This document shows, one piece after another, positions 23,000 to 44,827 of a stretch of 64,000 nucleotides of DNA. This DNA is from a virus (lineage: Duplodnaviria; Heunggongvirae; Uroviricota; Caudoviricetes): the IMG/VR virus record IMGVR_UViG_3300042901_002340, one strand, 5' to 3'. The notes beneath the pieces were generated by a model that did no database searches, was not told the origin of the DNA, and worked only from the letters and a program-made list of their open reading frames with translations. Both the position numbers and the translations under genes were made by a program. How positions within the stretch are numbered: the first letter of the stretch is position 1; the number at the start of each line of letters is the position of its first letter.

Positions 23000-23111
23000 A
23001 TCGAATTTTTTATTTATAGTATATATCTGAGAGGTTGAAACTATTTTCACTGGAAACAAAAAAGCCATGACATCTGATGAAGTCATGGCTTGTAGTAGCG
23101 TAGCCCGGTAA

Positions 23112-23636: not shown

Positions 23637-23721
23637 TTTAATGTATGAATATATTTTTTGTATGTTATATATCCCGCGGCCATAAAAAAGTCCGATATTG
23701 TGGATATCGGACTTTTCTTAG

Positions 23722-23791
23722 TAGCGTAACGTGGACTCGAACCACCCCCCAAGCTTATGAGACTTAGATGCAACCTTTACACTTTAACGCA
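23722..23791 (-). tRNA. tRNA-Met(CAT), initiator-like
   Basis: Cloverleaf, loop CT-CAT-AA, 1:72 mismatch; some stems imperfect. Confidence 0.65.
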
Positions 23792-23794
23792 ATT

Positions 23795-23886
23795 TGCTGA
23801 TTAATGAAGATTCGAACTTCAATCCTGTTTCCCCTTTCGCCTCCACGGCTACTCCGTTCTACTGTGCACCTTTACACCATAACCAA
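23795..23886 (-). ncRNA. tRNA-like RNA with aberrant anticodon region
   Basis: Acceptor TTGGTTA/TAATCAG, D-arm, T-arm TGAAG-TTCGAAT-CTTCA; no canonical anticodon arm. Confidence 0.45.
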
Positions 23887-24519: not shown

Positions 24520-24788
24520 GGTTAAGAAATAATGATGGAGTACCCGTCTCGCTCCATTCTTAAGTGCTTCTTCAGTTTTACTGTGCACAGGCACATTCCT
24601 TTGCAGGGGGTGTTGAATTTCTTAATCTACACATGGTTGTCGACACCGATGAGCAGGAAACCCCATTATTTCTATTTGTATATTTTATTGCCAGTTCTTG
24701 ATGCTTCTCTATATTTAGATAAGCTGTTCTATTGTTTCTGCAAGTCTACTCGCTATAAATAGCGGACTGTTTGGAATAAAATAAATTG

Positions 24789-24862
24789 TGGTCCCTGTAG
24801 GGCTTGAACCTACGACCCCCTGATTATGAGTCAGGTGCTCTAACCAACTGAGCTAAGAGACC
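24789..24862 (-). tRNA. tRNA(CAT), probably Ile2 (lysidine type)
   Basis: Cloverleaf, loop CT-CAT-AA; Ile2-like acceptor GGTCTCT/AGGGACC-A. Ile versus Met assignment is inferred. Confidence 0.8.
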
Positions 24863-28945: not shown

Positions 28946-28975
28946 AATTTACTTTTACAATATTTCAATGAACAA

Positions 28976-29008
28976 TAAAAAAGGCCTCCTTTTCGAGGAG
29001 ACCTTTTT
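28976..29008 (-). terminator. Attenuator terminator 1
   Basis: AAAAAGGTCTCCT-CGAAA-AGGAGGCCTTTTTT. Confidence 0.8.
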
Positions 29009-29031
29009 GATATTTATTATGTTACCTAATA

Positions 29032-29124
29032 TCAATACTCTCTCCTCATCACAATAGACGATTCACAAGTTGAACTTGTGTGATCTAAATGTAATGTATC
29101 TAATATGTACTGTATTTGTGACAT
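29032..29124 (-). CDS. Leader peptide 1 (30 aa) MSQIQYILDTLHLDHTSSTCESSIVMRREY
   Basis: Manual translation; lies between promoter motifs and the terminator; its 3' end is complementary to the terminator 5' arm. Confidence 0.75.
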   Translation of the reverse strand: MSQIQYILDTLHLDHTSSTCESSIVMRREY

Positions 29125-29281
29125 GATTTTTATTTTTATAGATTTATATATCTAATTGATTTTAATATTTTATGCAAATTTAAGGAAATGTTTCGAATAA
29201 AAAAAATTATTTTTGATTTTTTTCAAAATTTATTTAAAAAAAGTCACTCTTGCGAGTGACTTTTCATTTTTTTGTGATTTA

Positions 29282-30862
29282 TTAGATCACAATGGCTTCG
29301 ATTTCTCTCAAAATTGCTTTTGGATCAACCTCAGCTTTTTTGATCATCTCGTAGATATCAGCAGAGTAACCAAAAAGTTGAACTAATTTGTTACCTGGTT
29401 TGAACATGGTTGTACCATATCCTTGAATATCCACCGTGTAGATGAACGGCTCACCGTGTTTAGATTTGTAAGATTGGAAAGAACTGTTTGTAACGATTCT
29501 ATCACCACCTTGTAAATCCGATATGATGAAGACGCGGTCATATTTACCGCTTGATTGTAAAGTTGAGAAGATTGAACCGAAGTCCGTACCGTGTCCAACC
29601 CTACCTTGTAAGCTTAAACATGTGTTTTTGATAGTGTTTATGCTATCACCTGGATTGTATCTAATATCCTCAGTTGTTGTTGCAAATTGATATAAATCAG
29701 CACCAATACCTTTTGCTAGGGTTGCTCCGATAAGAGCAGCTTTATCGATACAGTGTTTATTGATAGCTTTACCATTCATTTTAACACCTTGACCCATTCC
29801 GTGCATAGATCCTGACGTATCTATAACAACAGCAGTTCTACCATGTGAGAATAATTCAACCAAGTTTGGTATTGCTAACTCGTAAGCTTTATTTAAAGCA
29901 GTAACGAATGGTCTAGATGCAGAAGCACTAGTTTCTTGTAAAAGAATCTCCAAAGCAATATCTATTTGGTGTGGGAAAACCAATGATTTTCTGATTAATT
30001 TCTCATCGATTAAAAGCTCACATGCTCCACTAACTAATTCAGAGTTTGCGCTTGTGTTGATGATGTTTCTTAAGTTACGAAGCAATGCCAAGTAACCAAT
30101 TTTTCTTGTTTTAATCAATTCAGCATAGTTGCTTTCTTTAGCCTGTGTTAATTCAACTTCAGCTTGAGCCTTGGTGATTTCCCCAGATTTAACTTTTGCA
30201 GCAACATCTTGTCCAGCTTTTGAGTTTTTATCCTCAACTGTATTGAACTGTTTTAATTTACCGGTCATAAGATCTTTAAAAACACCTTCCATTTGTGTGG
30301 TTGCTGGTTTTGGACGAACCAAGTTAACAACATCCACAAGAGAAACTGATTTTCCTTTACCTTGATATTTAGCTAATTCGTAGGTATCTGCTGATTCCAA
30401 AGCTGCTTTAAAACCTTTCTTCATTGAGTTAGGTAATGGTTTACCTGGATTGAAGTGTTGGTAAGCTGCAATGATCTCTAATACGTCATCTAAACGGTTT
30501 ACAATACCCCCGGTTTTAGCATTCTTATCTCTTTTTGAGAAGAATCTTTTACCTATGGCTGAACCAGATAAATGTTTAACTAATGACACAGATCCAAAGT
30601 GTGTTACAGATCTTTGTCCAACAACTGTTCTCGCGTACACGAGCGCTTTCGCGACGAATTCAATATCTTTTTTAGATAATTCGTCGATGAGTTGAATGAG
30701 TCTATTCTCTCTATCTGATAATTTTTCGTAGTATGAATTGTCTAATCCAGTGGTAAGAATTGCAATTAATTCCAATTTTGGATCATACTTCACACCAGTA
30801 CCACCTTGGTGGTTTGTAACTGTCTCTACAGTTCTTTTTACTTTTTGGTTGTAACGTGACAT
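29282..30862 (-). CDS. rsr: TROVE-domain/Ro60 (Rsr) RNA-binding protein
   Basis: TNHQGG start, AKYQ, YLALLRNLRNI, vWA MIDAS motif IDTSGSM, RVFIISD. Confidence 0.88.
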   Translation of the reverse strand: MSRYNQKVKRTVETVTNHQGGTGVKYDPKLELIAILTTGLDNSYYEKLSDRENRLIQLIDELSKKDIEFVAKALVYARTVVGQRSVTHFGSVSLVKHLSGSAIGKRFFSKRDKNAKTGGIVNRLDDVLEIIAAYQHFNPGKPLPNSMKKGFKAALESADTYELAKYQGKGKSVSLVDVVNLVRPKPATTQMEGVFKDLMTGKLKQFNTVEDKNSKAGQDVAAKVKSGEITKAQAEVELTQAKESNYAELIKTRKIGYLALLRNLRNIINTSANSELVSGACELLIDEKLIRKSLVFPHQIDIALEILLQETSASASRPFVTALNKAYELAIPNLVELFSHGRTAVVIDTSGSMHGMGQGVKMNGKAINKHCIDKAALIGATLAKGIGADLYQFATTTEDIRYNPGDSINTIKNTCLSLQGRVGHGTDFGSIFSTLQSSGKYDRVFIISDLQGGDRIVTNSSFQSYKSKHGEPFIYTVDIQGYGTTMFKPGNKLVQLFGYSADIYEMIKKAEVDPKAILREIEAIVI

Positions 30863-32610: not shown

Positions 32611-32740
32611 TGTAAGGGAATGACAGGACGAAAGAAATGATGTTTTTGTGGGAGTTGAACCCACTACCTTAAATACCAAAAATTTACGATCTACCAAATG
32701 ATCTAAAAAACGATGAATTTCGTTACCTTTACCACTTACA
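32611..32740 (-). ncRNA. Y-RNA-like RNA C, non-permuted Gln(TTG)-like tRNA inside the outer stem
   Basis: TGTAAGTGGT...GTCATTCCCTTACA encloses a complete cloverleaf. Confidence 0.65.
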
Positions 32741-32817
32741 ATAATACTTTTCAATGAACGTTTTTGTGATTATTATATAAGAGAAAATCCTCTTTGTTTC
32801 ATAAAAAATCAACATTT

Positions 32818-33432
32818 TTATTTTTTTCTTTGTGTTTTTCCGAATTTCCATCCATCTGGTGGAATTTCTTCCTTACTCAATCTTGCATTCTCTGTCCCGT
32901 TTGTTATCCAACCGAGACCTTTCAATTTATTTTGTATTGCTCCTAATTTCCAACCTTCTGGTATGGAGACATCACTTTTAATTTTTTTTGAATTTGTACC
33001 ATCGTTAATCCATCTGGTTCCAAATTGTGAATTTTTATTTCCCTGTTGATTCCCTAGATTCCTCGATGAGATATGCTTTAATTCACCGCTTAGATATCTT
33101 GGATCATCGACTCTTACATTTATAAAATTTCCATCGTTGTCAATTACTGTTGAGAATCCATTTGTATGAAAACTTTTTCCTGGAACATGATAATTTCTAT
33201 TTAGTTGATTCCTTATATTTTTATAGATCTCTATAGATTCAAATTCAATTGCTTCCTCTCTATTACTAAAACCTTCACTTAGTATCATTTTTCTAAGTTT
33301 TGTTTTATCAGGATTCCATGTTTTCATTGATCCTAGATATGAATCTATTGATGGGTGAACCTTACTGCTTCTGCTTCCTATATAATATTCACCAGTCTCT
33401 ATATGCTCAACCTTATAAACGTAATGATACAT
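32818..33432 (-). CDS. GIY-YIG homing endonuclease
   Basis: YVYKV...YYIGSR...YLGS; GNKNSQFGTRWINDG. Confidence 0.8.
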   Translation of the reverse strand: MYHYVYKVEHIETGEYYIGSRSSKVHPSIDSYLGSMKTWNPDKTKLRKMILSEGFSNREEAIEFESIEIYKNIRNQLNRNYHVPGKSFHTNGFSTVIDNDGNFINVRVDDPRYLSGELKHISSRNLGNQQGNKNSQFGTRWINDGTNSKKIKSDVSIPEGWKLGAIQNKLKGLGWITNGTENARLSKEEIPPDGWKFGKTQRKK

Positions 33433-33491
33433 AATTTTTTCATTTATATATCATTACTTCGTTTTTATTTCGGAAACGAAGTAACTTTTTG

Positions 33492-33565
33492 TCGGTAGAG
33501 GAGGACTCGAACCTCCGGCCTTCGAAGTATCAGTTCGACGCTCTAACCAACTGAGCTACCTACCG
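33492..33565 (-). tRNA. tRNA-Ile(GAT)
   Basis: Cloverleaf, loop CT-GAT-AC. Confidence 0.9.
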
Positions 33566-33606
33566 TGGATTGGGTTTTTGAAAGAAACCCTTATGTAAAA
33601 CTTTTG

Positions 33607-33677
33607 AGATCCCAGAGGGATTCGAACCCCCGTCTTCAGATCCGTATTCTGAAATTCTTCCGCTGAACTATGGGACC
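33607..33677 (-). tRNA. tRNA-Arg(ACG)
   Basis: Cloverleaf, loop AT-ACG-GA. Confidence 0.85.
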
Positions 33678-34033: not shown

Positions 34034-34094
34034 CTTTTTATTTATTGTTAATTATTATGTTGCAAATATATGACATCCTTTCGGGATAAAAAAA

Positions 34095-34556
34095 TTAATT
34101 TGTAATTTTTTCAACAATAATTTCCTTCACTTTAACCGGACTTGCCATACCAGGAAACTTTTTATTGAAAGCTCCGATAACTTTACCAGTAAGAGCTTGA
34201 GAGTTTAGGTTTGCACCATCAAATTCTGCTATAAGCTCAAGAACTGCTGAAGATATTTCTGAATCTTCCATTTGTTTAGGTAGATAAGACTCTATTGGTT
34301 TTAATTCTAGAGTTTCTTGTTCAACAAGATCCATTCTACCAGCTTTAGTAAATTCATCAACTGATTGTTTTCTTTGTTTGATTGTGCTTATGACAATCTT
34401 TAAAACATCAGCATCACTAAGCTCTGTACCAGCAGGTCCAGCTTTCTCAGCTTCCAAAATTTTTGACTTTAGCCCACTTAATGAGCTTTTACCTATTGTG
34501 TCCTTTGCCTTAAATGCTGCAATATAATCAGCATTGATTTTCTCTTTTAGTGTCAT
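34095..34556 (-). CDS. GatB/YqeY domain protein
   Basis: MTLKEKINAD..AAFKAKD, KQRKQS..F..AGR.DL, YLPKQM. Confidence 0.85.
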   Translation of the reverse strand: MTLKEKINADYIAAFKAKDTIGKSSLSGLKSKILEAEKAGPAGTELSDADVLKIVISTIKQRKQSVDEFTKAGRMDLVEQETLELKPIESYLPKQMEDSEISSAVLELIAEFDGANLNSQALTGKVIGAFNKKFPGMASPVKVKEIIVEKITN

Positions 34557-35205: not shown

Positions 35206-35501
35206 AATTTTATCAATTTGAAGCTCACAATGGACCCAACTTTAAGCTCAAAAATGCTCGAAATTGAGATACAAATGAGGGGCTTTGTGAGCTTCATTTC
35301 CTATTGAGATCCAATTCAGACTTTAGACCGCTACTAACACCATTTATCCATACTCTTGAAATGAAATGTGAAGGAATCGAACCTCCCTAGAGCCGTCGCC
35401 CCATACTCAGAATAACACCTATTTTCTACCCTTTGGTGATGACTTTCGTCTGTTCATCTTATTCCTCCTTTTTTGCTCTTTCGAACTAATTGGATCTCTT
35501 G

Positions 35502-35576
35502 TGATTCCTATACGATTCGAACGTATGACCCCCTGCTTGTAAAACAGGTGCTCTGAACCAACTGAGCTAAGGAACC
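35502..35576 (-). tRNA. tRNA-Val(TAC)
   Basis: Cloverleaf, loop TT-TAC-AA. Confidence 0.9.
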
Positions 35577-35593
35577 GGCTGCTGATATTGCTA

Positions 35594-36175
35594 TCAGCCT
35601 ATTTTATTTACTTTTGACTTCTTCTTCGCCTTCTGTTCTTCAATCTTAGCTGAGAATATCTCTTTTACTCTACCATCATGGTAGAATATTCTAGCATCAG
35701 GAGATGTCCAACCGTATTGGTCAGCTACTATCTGTGCATAATCTTCTATGCTATTAAGCTTAACCAATCCCTCTATTATTGGTGATCCATATTTTTCACC
35801 CAGAGATGGTTCCTTTACCCATTCGAATGCGGAATATCTGACTTTCAATAGGTCCAATGCCTCCTCAGGAGAAGATTCTCTATGAACCCATTCCTCCACC
35901 GGATAAGACCCATCTTTTTCCTTGGTCATCGATTCTAAATTAATAGCTGAATATGCACCATACCAACGATCTCCACAGCATGGACAATCGGATCCTTCAT
36001 CAACACCATTCCAATAACATCCGAGACCTTCAGCAATCGAATCTGCTTCATCCGAACTATTTGCTTCTATGAATAATCTGTGACATAGGTTATCGTCTGT
36101 TGCAAACGAACCACCAGTGTTGTTTTGAGAATACTCGTAAAATTTTAAACCTGCTTCTTCTTTTTTTCTTGTCAT
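35594..36175 (-). CDS. Conserved phage hypothetical protein
   Basis: QNNTGGSF and DCPCCGDRW motifs. Confidence 0.7.
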   Translation of the reverse strand: MTRKKEEAGLKFYEYSQNNTGGSFATDDNLCHRLFIEANSSDEADSIAEGLGCYWNGVDEGSDCPCCGDRWYGAYSAINLESMTKEKDGSYPVEEWVHRESSPEEALDLLKVRYSAFEWVKEPSLGEKYGSPIIEGLVKLNSIEDYAQIVADQYGWTSPDARIFYHDGRVKEIFSAKIEEQKAKKKSKVNKIG

Positions 36176-36185
36176 CTTTTTTGTT

Positions 36186-36416
36186 TTAAAAATAAATCCA
36201 TCCTGCGCATCTCTTAGGATACTTGGGTGTGAAATCTATGCAATCTGGATCTCCACCTCTGATGAATTCGAACATTGATACTTTTTCTTTTGTCCTGTTT
36301 GCTTTGTTGAATTGTCTAACGAAGTCTCTTGGAACATTATTCCAATAATGATATCTGCCAGGCGTGTGGCGTCTTCTTTGTGCTTCGGTCCAAGACCAGC
36401 TCTTTTTTGTTTTCAT
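36186..36416 (-). CDS. Small basic hypothetical protein
   Basis: Arg/Lys/aromatic-rich; preceded by a uORF-hairpin element. Confidence 0.6.
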   Translation of the reverse strand: MKTKKSWSWTEAQRRRHTPGRYHYWNNVPRDFVRQFNKANRTKEKVSMFEFIRGGDPDCIDFTPKYPKRCAGWIYF

Positions 36417-36480
36417 GTTGTATTAGGTTATTTTACCTAATACATGTCGAATTTCTTTTTCATTGTTAAAAATATTTTTG

Positions 36481-36553
36481 TGGACCTGAAGGGATTTGAA
36501 CCCTCATCCTCCTCCGTGCAAGGGAGGCGCTCAGCCAGTTGAGCTACAGGCCC
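36481..36553 (-). tRNA. tRNA-Ala(TGC)
   Basis: G3:U70 pair, anticodon TGC. Confidence 0.9.
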
Positions 36554-36561
36554 GGTTTTAG

Positions 36562-36634
36562 TAGCGTGTGCGGGGATCGAACCTGCGACCTAGAGTTTAT
36601 GATTCTCTCGCTCTGCCAACTGAGCTAACACGCC
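36562..36634 (-). tRNA. tRNA-Met(CAT), elongator-like
   Basis: Acceptor GGCGTGT/ACACGCT-A, anticodon CAT. Confidence 0.8.
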
Positions 36635-36675
36635 AATTCATAGGTTTTTAATTGAACCTATGAAAACAATCACTT

Positions 36676-36909
36676 CTACTGGTGATGTTTGACATATCTG
36701 CCAAATCGATCAACTCTAACCTCCATTTTAGTAAGGTTAAAATTCCAGTTTTGAAACACACCCAAGCCAGATCTTTGTCTTGCTTGTTTGTTCGCAGATT
36801 GCTCTGCCTTCTCACGTCCTTCTTCCGTAGTTTCTACGAAAAAAGTGGGAGCCTGAACACCAGTCTTACTGGTAGGAACTACTCTCCAAATTCTCAATTT
36901 CTGAGTCAT
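36676..36909 (-). CDS. Hypothetical protein
   Basis: ORF track. Confidence 0.6.
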   Translation of the reverse strand: MTQKLRIWRVVPTSKTGVQAPTFFVETTEEGREKAEQSANKQARQRSGLGVFQNWNFNLTKMEVRVDRFGRYVKHHQ

Positions 36910-36976
36910 AATTGTTTATCTAACAATTATGATCTACGAGCTGTCTTCGATTGCTTTCATTTGTTCTATTATATTT

Positions 36977-37264
36977 TTAAAATAACTTGTTTCCTTTATT
37001 AGCATATTTTACTAATATTTCTCCGTGACATCTTTTTGGTTTACACCAACACCCTAGAGTTTTTCCTTTAATCTCATGTAGAGAATTCATTAGCTCGTTG
37101 TTCTGAAGAAGATATTCCTCATACTTATCAATTGCTTCTTTTCTCGAAGCAACTTTAAACTCTGCTAATGTGTCTTCCTTATGTGAATATGGATTACCCC
37201 ATTTTGAGGGTCTTCCTATATAGACATCATATGGGTCGGTCTTAATGTTTACTACTTTAGACAT
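36977..37264 (-). CDS. DUF4326 domain protein
   Basis: DVYIGRPSKWGNPY and GKTLGCWCKPKRCHG motifs. Confidence 0.85.
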   Translation of the reverse strand: MSKVVNIKTDPYDVYIGRPSKWGNPYSHKEDTLAEFKVASRKEAIDKYEEYLLQNNELMNSLHEIKGKTLGCWCKPKRCHGEILVKYANKGNKLF

Positions 37265-37277
37265 CTGTTTATTTTTG

Positions 37278-37349
37278 AGCAGGTGGAGGGAATCGAACCC
37301 TCATATCCAGCTTGGAAGGCTGGCATACTAACCGTTGTACTACACCTGC
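37278..37349 (-). tRNA. tRNA-Gly(TCC)
   Basis: Cloverleaf, U73. Confidence 0.9.
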
Positions 37350-37398
37350 TTATTGGAGCCGGCACGATGATTCAATCGTGGATCACCCGGCATGTTTT

Positions 37399-38058
37399 TT
37401 AAAATTTCATTTTTCTTCCCAGTTTCCATCCTTCTGTAATATAATTTTCAATATCAGAGGCTTCAACAGACATGGATTTTTTAATATTTTCATTGTAGAT
37501 CCATTTCTTTCCAAAATTTGAATTTCCATTACCTTTTTGATGTATAGAATTTGATGTACCAATTCTTTTTTTTGTTTCTTCCGTGTGTTCTTTATTTAAA
37601 AATGATTTTGCTCCAGCTTCTCTTAATATTGCTGATTTCTCTGGATCTTCCCATAGCCTTTTAAGATTTTCTGATGATACTACCGCCATTTTTTCTCTAT
37701 ATCCTTGAGTGTTCCAATTTTTTTTATTTGATACCGATGCTCCTTTTTTTTGCCATTCCAACAACCATCCTCCTTCTCCACCTTTATTAATATTCATACA
37801 CATTGGATCTTTTAAAAGATCCTCATTAACTATTGCAATTTCACGTTGTCTTAATGATTCTCTATCATCGAAATATTCTAAAATTTCTTTAGTGTGTGCT
37901 TCCTTACCGTGTTTCCTTATGGAATTTCTTATTCTTTTTCCTCCGCCCATATAGTCATCATCCAAATTATGTGTTGAATGCATGCCTATATAATATTTAC
38001 CATTTTTTATGTTTATTATCTTATAAAGATAATGAAACTGCTTTTCTTTTCTTGCCAT
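37399..38058 (-). CDS. GIY-YIG (Seg-like) homing endonuclease
   Basis: Third MARKEK paralogue. Confidence 0.85.
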   Translation of the reverse strand: MARKEKQFHYLYKIINIKNGKYYIGMHSTHNLDDDYMGGGKRIRNSIRKHGKEAHTKEILEYFDDRESLRQREIAIVNEDLLKDPMCMNINKGGEGGWLLEWQKKGASVSNKKNWNTQGYREKMAVVSSENLKRLWEDPEKSAILREAGAKSFLNKEHTEETKKRIGTSNSIHQKGNGNSNFGKKWIYNENIKKSMSVEASDIENYITEGWKLGRKMKF

Positions 38059-38112
38059 TTCTATACTTTAGTTTAGATTATATATCTAAACTAAAGTACG
38101 AAAAAGCGCCAG

Positions 38113-38184
38113 AGCGAAAAACGGGGATTGAACCCGCGACCCCCACCTTGGCAAGGTGATGCTCTACCGCTGAGCTATTTTCGC
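38113..38184 (-). tRNA. tRNA-Gly(GCC)
   Basis: Cloverleaf, U73. Confidence 0.9.
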
Positions 38185-38299
38185 ATTTTTGAATGTGACA
38201 GGGTATTCTCCTGCAGATGTGGTGGTTAACTAGTCCCATTACCCACTCCAGTTTTTCGTCTGGTGCTGTTGTAGTTTATCAGCGTTCACACATTCATTG

Positions 38300-38372
38300 A
38301 GGGCGGAGTGAGATTCGAACTCACGACCATCTGATTAACAGTCAGAAGCTACTACCGCTGAGCTATCCACCC
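38300..38372 (-). tRNA. tRNA-Asn(GTT), atypical acceptor (G1-C72, U73)
   Basis: Loop CT-GTT-AA. Confidence 0.8.
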
Positions 38373-38375
38373 TTT

Positions 38376-38537
38376 TTATAATCCAGGAAAGGAATCCCAA
38401 CAGAACCAATCCTCGAATTTCTCATTTACTTCTTTAGTTATATCTTCCTTAGAAGTTCCTTCGTCAACATAAATAGACTCTGCCCTTTCGTATGTTGTAT
38501 CGAAGTAAATAACCACTTTAACTTTTTTTGTGTACAT
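38376..38537 (-). CDS. Small hypothetical protein
   Basis: MYTKKVKVVIYFD...; the longer predicted start overlaps tRNA-Phe. Confidence 0.5.
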   Translation of the reverse strand: MYTKKVKVVIYFDTTYERAESIYVDEGTSKEDITKEVNEKFEDWFCWDSFPGL

Positions 38538-38552
38538 AAAAGTATATATTTG

Positions 38553-38627
38553 TGGGACCGGGCGGGATCGAACCGCCATCTCTGGATTTTCAGTCCAGCG
38601 CGAACTGACCAACTGCGCTACAGTCCC
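38553..38627 (-). tRNA. tRNA-Phe(GAA)
   Basis: Cloverleaf, loop CT-GAA-AA. Confidence 0.9.
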
Positions 38628-38637
38628 TTCTATTATT

Positions 38638-39096
38638 TTATTTTTTTAGATTTCCTCCGCCGAAGGTTTCTGTTTGTGAATGACAGTTTGGACATAGCAA
38701 TCTTATATTTGCTATTCTGTTATCATCATTTATTCCGTTTATGTGATCGAGTTGTAATGTTAATTTCCCGCCATTCCATTCGTTTATACCACAAATTTTA
38801 CAAGAATATTCAATTATTCCCTCCCTTACTAAGCGTGACTTTAAACTTTTAAAGTTTCTATATGTAGATTTCTCTACCAATATATCTTCAATAGGTATTC
38901 TTATATTCTTACTGGTCCCGTGTGCCTTACCTTTAAAATGTGAGACGTCAATTTTGTTTTCCTCTATTATGGATTTTAATTTTCTATAAACGTTTCCTCC
39001 TTTAACATTATATCCCAAATTTCTTTGCAAGTCCGCATAAGTTGTGCACTTCTTTATTTCCTCCCTTATCCTTTCTATTGTGTATATAATTTTCAT
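38638..39096 (-). CDS. HNH endonuclease
   Basis: LQLDHING...NIRLLCPNCHSQT. Confidence 0.85.
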   Translation of the reverse strand: MKIIYTIERIREEIKKCTTYADLQRNLGYNVKGGNVYRKLKSIIEENKIDVSHFKGKAHGTSKNIRIPIEDILVEKSTYRNFKSLKSRLVREGIIEYSCKICGINEWNGGKLTLQLDHINGINDDNRIANIRLLCPNCHSQTETFGGGNLKK

Positions 39097-39113
39097 AACA
39101 TCTTTTTAATTTG

Positions 39114-39187
39114 CTCTTCTGGCTGGATTCGAACCAGCAACCCCAGGTTTAACAAACCTTCGCTCTAACCATTGGAGCTACAGAAGA
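39114..39187 (-). tRNA. tRNA-Asn(GTT)
   Basis: U1-A72, G73, anticodon GTT. Confidence 0.88.
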
Positions 39188-39193
39188 ATGTTG

Positions 39194-39304
39194 TGGAGCA
39201 GCTGGAATTGAACCACGCTATCTGGGATAAGCACTAATAGTCTTACTCTTGCTATCTAGAATCTGAAGCAGACCCTATCAGGCATTTCCCAACCCTTTTA
39301 CTCC
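39194..39304 (-). ncRNA. tRNA-like RNA with a long helix replacing the D and anticodon arms
   Basis: Acceptor GGAGTA/TGCTCC-A; T-loop TTCAATT; TGGGA...TCCCA helix. Confidence 0.45.
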
Positions 39305-39309
39305 ATTTG

Positions 39310-39387
39310 TGGGATATGGAGGACTCGAACCTCCGTGTGGTGTGCCTGATTTACAGTCAGGTGCAGTCGCCGCTGTGCCAATATCCC
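39310..39387 (-). tRNA. tRNA-Tyr(GTA)
   Basis: Loop CT-GTA-AA; short unpaired variable region. Confidence 0.85.
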
Positions 39388-39394
39388 ATTGTTG

Positions 39395-39468
39395 TGACCC
39401 CGGTCGGGCTCGAACCGACGACTCCCGCATTAAAAGTGCGATGCTCTAGCCAACTGAGCTACGAGGTC
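39395..39468 (-). tRNA. tRNA-Lys(TTT)
   Basis: Cloverleaf. Confidence 0.9.
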
Positions 39469-39645
39469 ATTATTGATAAAGTTGTTTTTGTTTAATAAAC
39501 CTGTCTGGTTTATTAAAACTTTTCCACTTTATCGTATTGATTTAGTTTCCATTATGTCAAAGATCCTTCTTTATCTGCATCGCAAATGTATGAAATGCTT
39601 TCGAATTAAAAAAATATTTTTTAATAATTTTTTTAATTTTATTTG

Positions 39646-39716
39646 TTGGGATACCAGGGTTCGAACCTGGACGAACAGAATCAAAATCTGTGATGCTTCC
39701 ATTACATCATATCCCA
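39646..39716 (-). tRNA. tRNA-Gln(TTG)
   Basis: Cloverleaf, U1-A72. Confidence 0.88.
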
Positions 39717-39728
39717 ATTTAAAAAAAG

Positions 39729-39799
39729 CACGGATAATAGGGGTCGAACCTATATCGGAAGTTTTGGAGACTCCTATGCTACCATTGCACCATACCCGT
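39729..39799 (-). tRNA. tRNA-Trp(CCA)
   Basis: Loop CT-CCA-AA, G73. Confidence 0.88.
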
Positions 39800-39803
39800 T
39801 TGT

Positions 39804-40031
39804 TTACCTAGTTGACTTATGGAACTCGTTGTTCTCTAAAGCCTTTCTAATGTACCTCATAAAGAAGATGGCATTATCTTCAGCTAACAGAGTTGCCTCA
39901 CCTATATCATTCAGTCTAACAGGAAATGTGTGATCTGCTCCTTCAACGAAAACGTTGTAATAAGCGATGTCATTCTTTAGATACGAGAATCTAACTTTGT
40001 TGTTCTTTACGATTTCTTTTATTGTTGCCAT
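39804..40031 (-). CDS. Conserved phage hypothetical protein
   Basis: FPV..DIG.AT.LAED.AIFFMRYIRKA. Confidence 0.65.
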   Translation of the reverse strand: MATIKEIVKNNKVRFSYLKNDIAYYNVFVEGADHTFPVRLNDIGEATLLAEDNAIFFMRYIRKALENNEFHKSTR

Positions 40032-40121
40032 TTCATTTATTTGTTTTTTAGAAAAGACCTATCAGATTAAAAATTCTGTCTTTTGACCCATCAAATTTTT
40101 TATCCTGTCTTTCCTTATTTG

Positions 40122-40195
40122 TCGGGGTAGCCGGACTCGAACCGACGACCTCCTGCTCCCAAAGCAGGCGCGCTAACCAACTGTGCTACACCCCG
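40122..40195 (-). tRNA. tRNA-Pro(TGG)
   Basis: C1-G72, anticodon TGG. Confidence 0.92.
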
Positions 40196-40208
40196 TTAAT
40201 TTCAATTC

Positions 40209-40243
40209 AAAAAAAAAACTCCAGATCTTTTAGGATCTGGAGT
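40209..40243 (-). terminator. Attenuator terminator 2
   Basis: ACTCCAGATC-CTAAAA-GATCTGGAGT followed by a long T-run. Confidence 0.85.
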
Positions 40244-40279
40244 AAAAATATTTAATGCTTATTTGACTAGTGCTTTACA

Positions 40280-40408
40280 TTAAATTATATTGTGACCTCC
40301 AGATCCCTTGCTGTACCCATTATACCATTTGGCAATGCCCACCTGATTAAATGGTGCAACGCTCTGCGGCATAAACGGTTTTACAATATTTCTGAAAGTT
40401 GTTTTCAT
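40280..40408 (-). CDS. Leader peptide 2 (42 aa) MKTTFRNIVKPFMPQSVAPFNQVGIAKWYNGYSKGSGGHNII
   Basis: Manual translation; contains GGATCTGGAG, complementary to the terminator 5' arm. Confidence 0.75.
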   Translation of the reverse strand: MKTTFRNIVKPFMPQSVAPFNQVGIAKWYNGYSKGSGGHNII

Positions 40409-40518
40409 TGTGTTTTTAAATTATAGATTTATATATCTATGTTGATTTTAATATTTTATGCAAATTTAGGAAAAAGTTTCGAATAAAAAAAATTATTTTT
40501 GATTTTTTTTGAATTATT

Positions 40519-44647: not shown

Positions 44648-44827
44648 TTATGCCTTTGTTGTGTCTACTTTAACTGCTGTTGTGTCTACTGTTGTAGTAT
44701 CAACTTTAGTTGTATCAACCGCTGTGGTGTCAACCGGTGCATCAGTAGAATCTTTAGCGTCTACATGTTTGCATGATGTCAGGCTCAGCGAGAAGAGTAC
44801 TGCAAGTAAGAATAGTGTCCTTTTCAT
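44648..44827 (-). CDS. Small lipoprotein with VDTT repeats
   Basis: MKRTLFLL...LTSC lipobox followed by VDTT repeats. Confidence 0.7.
   Translation of the reverse strand: MKRTLFLLAVLFSLSLTSCKHVDAKDSTDAPVDTTAVDTTKVDTTTVDTTAVKVDTTKA

Follow-up and report, generated by a model that had tools for sequence, protein, structure and literature searches.

The trpL and hisL leaders of E. coli, together with the multivalent thrL and ilvL leaders and the pheM leader of pheST, share the same 1:2, 2:3 and 3:4 helices and an intrinsic terminator. In pheL attenuation, a short ORF is combined with alternative helices, and stalling at cognate codons leads to read-through (PMC3082878); leader attenuation has also been proposed for Flavobacterium amino-acid operons (PMC9723704). 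The phage locus analyzed here resembles this class in its short ORF, its predicted antiterminator and terminator helices, the intrinsic terminator before the first regulated gene, and codons cognate to the downstream genes. However, members of the trpL/pheL/thrL class regulate genes for amino-acid biosynthesis, uptake, or synthetases and carry tandem runs of one to three amino acids, whereas the genes downstream of the phage unit are tRNAs and its leader (leader 2) disperses 13 amino acids (3–20 in other phage leaders). Moreover, parallel phage leaders partition the code, and what they supply would be new adaptors, not amino acids. Since it has neither tandem regulatory codons nor amino-acid-supply targets, the phage unit is not a plain member of this class.

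T-box riboswitches likewise sense tRNA status and choose between a terminator and an antiterminator, but they recognize a single uncharged tRNA by direct binding and work without an ORF, unlike leader 2; a T-box was ruled out by an Rfam gathering search of positions 23000–46000, which returned only tRNAs. Stalling in a short ORF also alters downstream expression in toiL (PMC12121999) and in the mycobacterial poly-Cys attenuators (10.1101/834739, PMC13096801), where tRNA-Cys cleavage by VapC4 stalls ribosomes in the Cys attenuator ORFs (PMC13096801). These systems, however, control protein genes and sense one amino acid or drugs, with toiL acting through ribosome-site masking and Rho. A translational attenuator, in which an upstream ORF masks a ribosome-binding site as in toiL or ermCL, was ruled out here by a first downstream gene that is tRNA-Pro behind an intrinsic terminator.

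Control of the cyanobacterial trn operon is reportedly exerted by a repressor and, unlike the phage leaders, is neither codon-matched nor split into blocks; at the phage locus, the 16-nt palindrome at 40439–40424 could be a repressor operator. The trn operon and other long bacterial tRNA arrays are similar to the phage locus in that a long array with a homing endonuclease is linked to survival of translational stress, and the trn operon paper does not mention a leader or attenuation (PMC8421152). According to the available portions of two reports on phage tRNAs that act against host defence, the T5 tRNA-Lys counters PARIS (PMC11464382), and a T5-like tRNA-Tyr counters retron-Eco7 with a rescue that depends on promoter strength (PMC11555353). 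The likeness lies in tRNA supply rescuing translation and in the importance of expression level; those portions describe a strong promoter and no sensor, whereas expression of the block studied here is apparently conditional. No leader attenuator for tRNA genes was found in our literature search, from which subscription journals were mostly out of reach.

The window, meaning here the whole 64,000-nucleotide stretch of DNA that was analyzed, is part of a complete virus record of 430,120 bp with direct terminal repeats (IMGVR_UViG_3300042901_002340), which encodes a T4-type Gp23 capsid protein and its own sigma-70-like genes. The nearest named capsids belong to Prevotella Lak phages (~46%) and to Tenacibaculum, Flavobacterium, and Chryseobacterium phages. 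Because a motif made up of a T-run and TAnnTTTG recurs about 100 times in the genome and matches the -7 box of Flavobacterium sigmaA (PMC9723704), we infer a host in Bacteroidota. There is no ready cultured model, since among the cultured relatives by capsid protein a tRNA match is absent from MaF61 and MA9V-1, while PAU and pT24 have a few tRNAs and no detected leader-terminator unit. ARAGORN found 28 tRNAs in the whole genome, all within the window on the minus strand; three tRNAs with a CAT anticodon lie at 23700–23800, 24788–24862, and 36561–36634 (-), the one near 23720–23795 having been missed by ARAGORN. The features of the locus are collected in Table 1.

Table 1. Features of the leader 2 locus, its tRNA block, and the sister unit (window positions)
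Feature	Position	Strand	Basis or remark
Candidate host sigmaA-type promoter, T-run + TAnnTTTG box (40468–40461)	40461–40500	-	PWM 40.7, rank 12/100 genome copies
16-nt palindrome with GATATATA, shared with leader 1 only	40424–40439	-	2 copies genome-wide
Leader ORF 2, 42 codons	40280–40408	-	Putative sensing zone ~ codons 7–29/30
Segment 1, codons 4–6, predicted 1:2 protector with segment 2	40391–40399	-	MFE prediction
Segment 2, predicted antiterminator strand, codons 34–38	40297–40307	-	11-bp pairing with terminator 5' arm
Predicted inner helix across the stop codon, juxtaposing segments 2 and 3	40247–40291	-	In both predicted states
Intrinsic terminator, 5' arm = segment 3	40209–40243	-	Folding, terminator scan
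tRNA-Pro(TGG), Trp(CCA), Gln(TTG)	39645–40195	-	No other promoter-like site upstream
Candidate internal sigmaA-type promoter (39582), then boxA-like motif, ahead of tRNA-Lys	39555–39600	-	Score 40.1, rank 15/100
tRNA Lys, Tyr, Asn, Phe, Asn, Gly, Gly, Met, Ala, Val with interspersed ORFs (HNH, GIY-YIG)	35501–39468	-	
Second candidate internal sigmaA-type promoter (34062)	34063–34100	-	Score 42.7, rank 4/100
tRNA Arg(ACG), Ile(GAT), Gln(TTG), end of block 2	32639–33677	-	
Sister unit, putatively gating block 1: same promoter, leader 1 (29124–29032, 30 aa), terminator (~29005–28981)	28975–29225	-	

The original prediction, made from the sequence alone, described a 42-aa ORF followed by a 10-bp terminator with a U-run and then by tRNA block 2, and this arrangement was confirmed. 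Its reading of the peptide also holds: leader 2 contains all 13 block-2 amino acids, residues 5–35 include only S16 and S33 from outside the set, and Leu, Cys, Asp, and Glu are absent. In-set residues make up 35/41 of leader 2 against the 0.63 expected from this phage's proteins (binomial p = 0.0016), and the in-set count together with full coverage is equalled by only 0.024% of real protein windows from this genome (joint p ~2e-4). Codons 5–34 carry no tandem identical residues; the 13 amino acids are dispersed, most of them occurring one to four times each. Codons that fall outside the set or read AGA lie mostly in the start zone (T3, T4, and R6) and the tail zone (S33, S36, and H39). A caveat attached to the prediction, that the sole Arg codon of leader 2 is AGA and is not decoded by the Arg(ACG) of block 2, is correct. 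It is largely explained because codons 4–6 are predicted to pair with codons 35–38, a helix whose presence may be the reason why Thr, AGA-Arg, and Ser codons are found there. The frame is intact in four relatives, with indels restricted to the flanks, and synonymous substitutions make up 9/17 of the codon changes (p = 0.012 vs 25%). The four related contigs retain promoter, ORF, segment 2, and terminator, and a blastn search of the leader region against GenBank phages matched only tRNA-Pro. To judge from these sequences, leader 2 appears to be a short ORF kept under selection between a promoter and the genes it would regulate.

The terminator stem (40243–40218) has 10 pairs, 5 of them G-C, with a 6-nt loop and 9 further T (−15.2 kcal/mol). 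As had been predicted, GGATCTGGAG at 40306–40297 is the exact 10-nt complement of the terminator 5' arm; the full pairing comprises 11 pairs including one G-U and encloses a second helix, for a total of −23.5 kcal/mol. This duplex between the arm and upstream RNA (−18.7 kcal/mol) ranks first of 160 genome terminators and beats 300/300 dinucleotide shuffles. The core of segment 2 is invariant in five sequences, and a terminator-arm change in one relative (L010) stays a G-U pair in both helices. The 1:2 helix is the predicted MFE structure of the ribosome-free RNA in the window and in all four relatives, but the nascent RNA prefers 2:3, and L002 yields a P(term) of 0.22.

When a ribosome footprint was modelled, stalls at codons 2–30 left the 5' arm captured in the nascent RNA (P = 0.91), capture dropped to 0.16–0.24 for stalls at codons 34–40, and a ribosome over codons 32 to stop gave P(terminator) = 1.00. 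The antiterminator is thus predicted to be exclusive with the terminator and placed such that a ribosome near the stop codon would mask it. In ribosome-free folds, the nascent RNA of leader 2 favours the antiterminator (0.91) and the full-length RNA favours the terminator (0.89). Equilibrium P(terminator) with a mid-ORF stall has a median of 0.99 over the leaders (0.41 for leader 2 and 0.07–0.94 for its relatives), and equilibrium folding fails to reproduce the switch in most leaders. Since the terminator wins at equilibrium in most of them, the switch would have to be kinetic, with 2:3 forming first.

Block 1, behind leader 1, contains tRNAs for Ser (three), Thr, Cys, His, Leu, Glu, and Asp and a CAT tRNA. 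The proposal that the two leaders divide the code between them stood up to comparison: leader 2 draws 35/41 residues from its own set vs 7/41 from the block-1 set, leader 1 draws 19/29 from its own vs 11/29 (or, if Ile is included in the block-1 set, 22/29, p = 0.0015), and in the composition test each leader fails to match the block of the other. The CAT tRNA at 24788 presumably resembles Ile2, which would fit the two ATA codons of leader 1 as against the ATT codons of leader 2. As an internal control, the Arg(TCT)/Leu(TAG) tRNAs have a promoter directly upstream, and the preceding 59-aa ORF is unmatched (z = −0.3). This ORF (44648–44827, -), just upstream of the Arg(TCT) promoter, is lipoprotein-like with DTT repeats, has its own terminator, and is conserved in relatives; it is not a leader. 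Between the two tRNA blocks lies a TROVE/Ro60 gene (29282–30862, -); many related phages have homologues of it next to their tRNA arrays, which suggests a module for RNA repair or quality control.

The original prediction had also counted the near-duplicate regions upstream of the two leaders as evidence against chance. The duplication is real (91% over 101 nt), but it was not counted as independent evidence, since at its core lies the generic promoter motif with about 100 genome copies. Within the duplicated region, the only part private to the two leaders is the 16-nt palindrome, whose copies lie at 40439–40424 and 29154–29139. The GATATATA that it contains has 93 genome copies, 67 of them intergenic (intergenic DNA makes up 13%) and 65 within 70 nt of an ORF start, and it is probably a phage-sigma promoter motif. 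Because the palindrome contains this motif, which is enriched just before genes, there may be two phases of transcription for each leader; the palindrome itself could form a 5' hairpin, act as an operator, or mask the GATATATA promoter.

A search of large-phage loci for small ORFs and terminators ahead of tRNA arrays, suggested along with the original prediction, found such units, and their leaders match their own arrays. Related loci were collected via the neighbouring TROVE gene and the promoter pattern, and a detector blind to composition was used, which asked for a terminator ≤400 nt from a tRNA and took the longest ATG ORF ending 5–60 nt before that terminator. On related phage contigs, this returned 75 short-ORF units with 51 distinct peptides in 20 families; 46 distinct leader-plus-terminator units stand ahead of reshuffled tRNA arrays. 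A first clustering chained 70/75 units into one family and was uninformative, and the stricter clustering used instead still puts 33 units in one family, which makes it conservative. Across the 17 informative families, the mean own-array z was 2.26 vs 0.05 when permuted (p ≤ 5e-6), and seven complete arrays without an intervening promoter gave an own-array match at p = 2.4e-4. Because the leaders are related to varying degrees, pooled p-values overstate independence, and the family-level permutation is the figure to trust. Within a single phage, the two leaders of L013 match their own arrays at 23/30 and 30/39 vs 6/30 and 7/39 when swapped; L015 and L022 have three leaders each, and phages with several leaders split the code differently from this phage. 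Leaders of single long arrays (L011, L012, L037, L059, L115, and L125) hold 19–20 different amino acids in 33–51 residues; for arrays of ≥16 amino-acid types, where leaders have 19–20 distinct residues, a count of 20 is reached by 0.04–1.8% of same-length protein windows.

The match is also restricted in position. In-set residues number 41/85 in the start zone, 234/291 in the sensing zone, and 89/189 in the tail (80% vs 47–48%; Fisher p = 2e-16, with leaders that are not fully independent), so that matching is confined to the codons where, in the model, a stalled ribosome would free the antiterminator. The Leu codon box tracks the Leu anticodon of the array (p = 0.008), and codon-box matching was not significant for Ser and Arg. 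Moreover, in almost all of the 46 leaders the antiterminator occupies the final codons. The antiterminator duplexes have a median of −12.1 vs −6.4 for genome terminators (p = 3e-15), and the antiterminators fit their own terminators better than those of other units (−12.7 vs −7.0 cross-paired, p ≤ 1e-5). In the Prevotella megaphage Lak-A1 (MK250016.1), two leader-plus-terminator units precede tRNA clusters (L214 and L213). The first, tested out of sample, is a 42-codon ORF with a terminator (~108063–108191, +) before His, Pro, Arg, Arg, Gly, Cys, and Met tRNAs and has 21/41 residues in a 6-amino-acid set vs 0.20 expected (p = 8e-6); the second, ending at ~501507 (-), has 30/36 in set (p = 0.17), which is compatible and not significant. 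The original Lak paper makes no mention of a leader, attenuation, or a terminator. Several related arrays (L010:7918; L017, L018, L034, L089, and others) also contain suppressor-type tRNAs, with TTA and CTA anticodons, according to ARAGORN, hinting at stop-codon recoding in some related phages.

This comparative test, in which leaders of related phages match their own arrays, is the strongest evidence for the attenuator reading, which is supported both by the match in this genome and by unrelated leaders in other phages. We assign a probability of roughly 0.8 to ribosome-coupled attenuation that answers slow decoding of block-specific codons and raises tRNA output. In the mechanism that we infer, polymerase would start at the leader promoter with a ribosome following on the leader ORF. 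Were all codons read fast, the ribosome would cover codons 32 to stop and mask segment 2, the terminator would fold, and transcription would stop ~15 nt before tRNA-Pro. A slow Pro, Trp, Gln, Lys, Tyr, Asn, Phe, Gly, Met, Ala, Val, or Ile codon at positions 7–30 would instead free segment 2, which would pair with the terminator 5' arm ahead of synthesis of the 3' arm and so let polymerase read into block 2. The extra tRNA would speed the ribosome and close the loop, and leader 1 would be the same switch for the complementary amino-acid set.

A general translation-stress sensor would use the same parts, with any slowdown or uncoupling (antibiotics, ribosome damage, or host shut-off) freeing segment 2, the choice of codons serving only to widen coverage, and no block-specific response in practice. 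Such a sensor would suit codons that are scattered singly instead of standing in runs, a nascent fold that favours the antiterminator in the absence of a ribosome, and the existence of leaders with all 20 amino acids, and E. coli toiL offers the precedent of one uORF sensing many stresses (PMC12121999). The block-specific matching and avoidance seen across reshuffled arrays, and within one genome, would however not be selected for in a generic sensor, and a stress response can coexist with a block-specific one; we consider it unlikely that stress sensing accounts for the leaders by itself.

How much of block 2 the attenuator would control depends on its internal promoters. The previously described tRNA order is correct, with a second Gln(TTG) at 32639 to be added, and the internal promoter motifs, raised earlier as a caveat, are real, high-scoring, and conserved in relatives (in three for 39582). 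Since they score as high as the leader promoter (ranks 15 and 4 vs 12 of 100), the switch is a probable booster for 10/13 amino-acid types: only the Pro, Trp, and Gln tRNAs appear to be strictly behind it, and the remaining block-2 tRNAs would probably be boosted above a basal level, not gated on/off. A terminator scan found no strong terminator between leader 2 and the end of block 2, so that read-through would add to the downstream tRNAs, and leader 2 carries codons of tRNAs beyond the internal promoters too. Because neither internal promoter has GATATATA after it, leader 2 may matter more once the phage sigma dominates. The block also contains GIY-YIG-like and HNH endonuclease genes (37399–38058 and 38638–39096, -), the former bringing a GATATATA motif (38086) that could serve as a further internal promoter. 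From the internal promoter to tRNA-Lys runs a conserved 110-nt leader (39470–39580, -), whose boxA-like motif and A/T-rich hairpin are kept in three relatives. The motif, which we take to be boxA-like from the rrn boxA consensus, lies at 28973–28963, 39565–39555, and 32759–32749 (-) and at related loci; it follows 17/46 leader terminators vs 1/160 genome terminators, leader 2 being without it, and suggests Nus-type processive antitermination of the untranslated arrays past the switch.

These strong, conserved internal promoters would also fit a terminator that is constitutive or leaky and follows a small gene only incidentally, with the tRNAs transcribed from the internal promoters or released by a timed phage antiterminator protein. 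Such a view agrees with the dominance of the terminator at equilibrium and with a stop-to-stem gap of 21–37 nt, which is normal for ordinary genes here and was dropped as a diagnostic for that reason. Yet the Pro, Trp, and Gln tRNAs lack a second promoter-like site, 35/46 units have no internal promoter (by a pattern tuned to this phage's genome), and composition match, zone restriction, and terminator-specific antiterminators would all be left unexplained, which makes this account quite improbable. Least probable of all is nascent-peptide arrest, or a peptide or leader RNA acting in trans, that drives the switch or has its own job with codon identity secondary: leader 2 is well conserved in close relatives and its RNA is highly structured (z = −5.5), but between phages the leaders have no sequence in common, only a composition that fits their respective arrays, and no common arrest motif was seen among them.

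Under ribosome-coupled attenuation, the likeliest trigger would be the loss of tRNA bodies to host anticodon nucleases or to general tRNA decay in infection, which is favoured over amino-acid starvation because more tRNA would not cure starvation; it is the least certain step of the mechanism. We see an even chance that the leaders sense defence, each acting as a checklist ORF for its tRNA block that is rewritten upon reshuffling, detects nuclease-destroyed tRNAs, and switches on replacements. Whether such modular code surveillance spans large Bacteroidota phages, Lak megaphages included, we hold to be about evenly poised.

Why phages carry tRNAs is a long-standing puzzle, with codon-bias tuning set against the replacement of destroyed host tRNA, and a sensor that switches tRNA genes on only at slow codons would argue for replacement on demand. 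The question is testable with a 250-nt reporter and does not need phage culture. The attenuator reading would extend classical attenuation from amino-acid to tRNA supply and from one to three amino acids to up to 20, and the leaders may provide compact reporters for tRNA-targeting defence systems in Bacteroidota. If defence sensing is true, it would constitute a counter-defence that is inducible and limits itself, and the tRNAs under attack could be read off from each leader.
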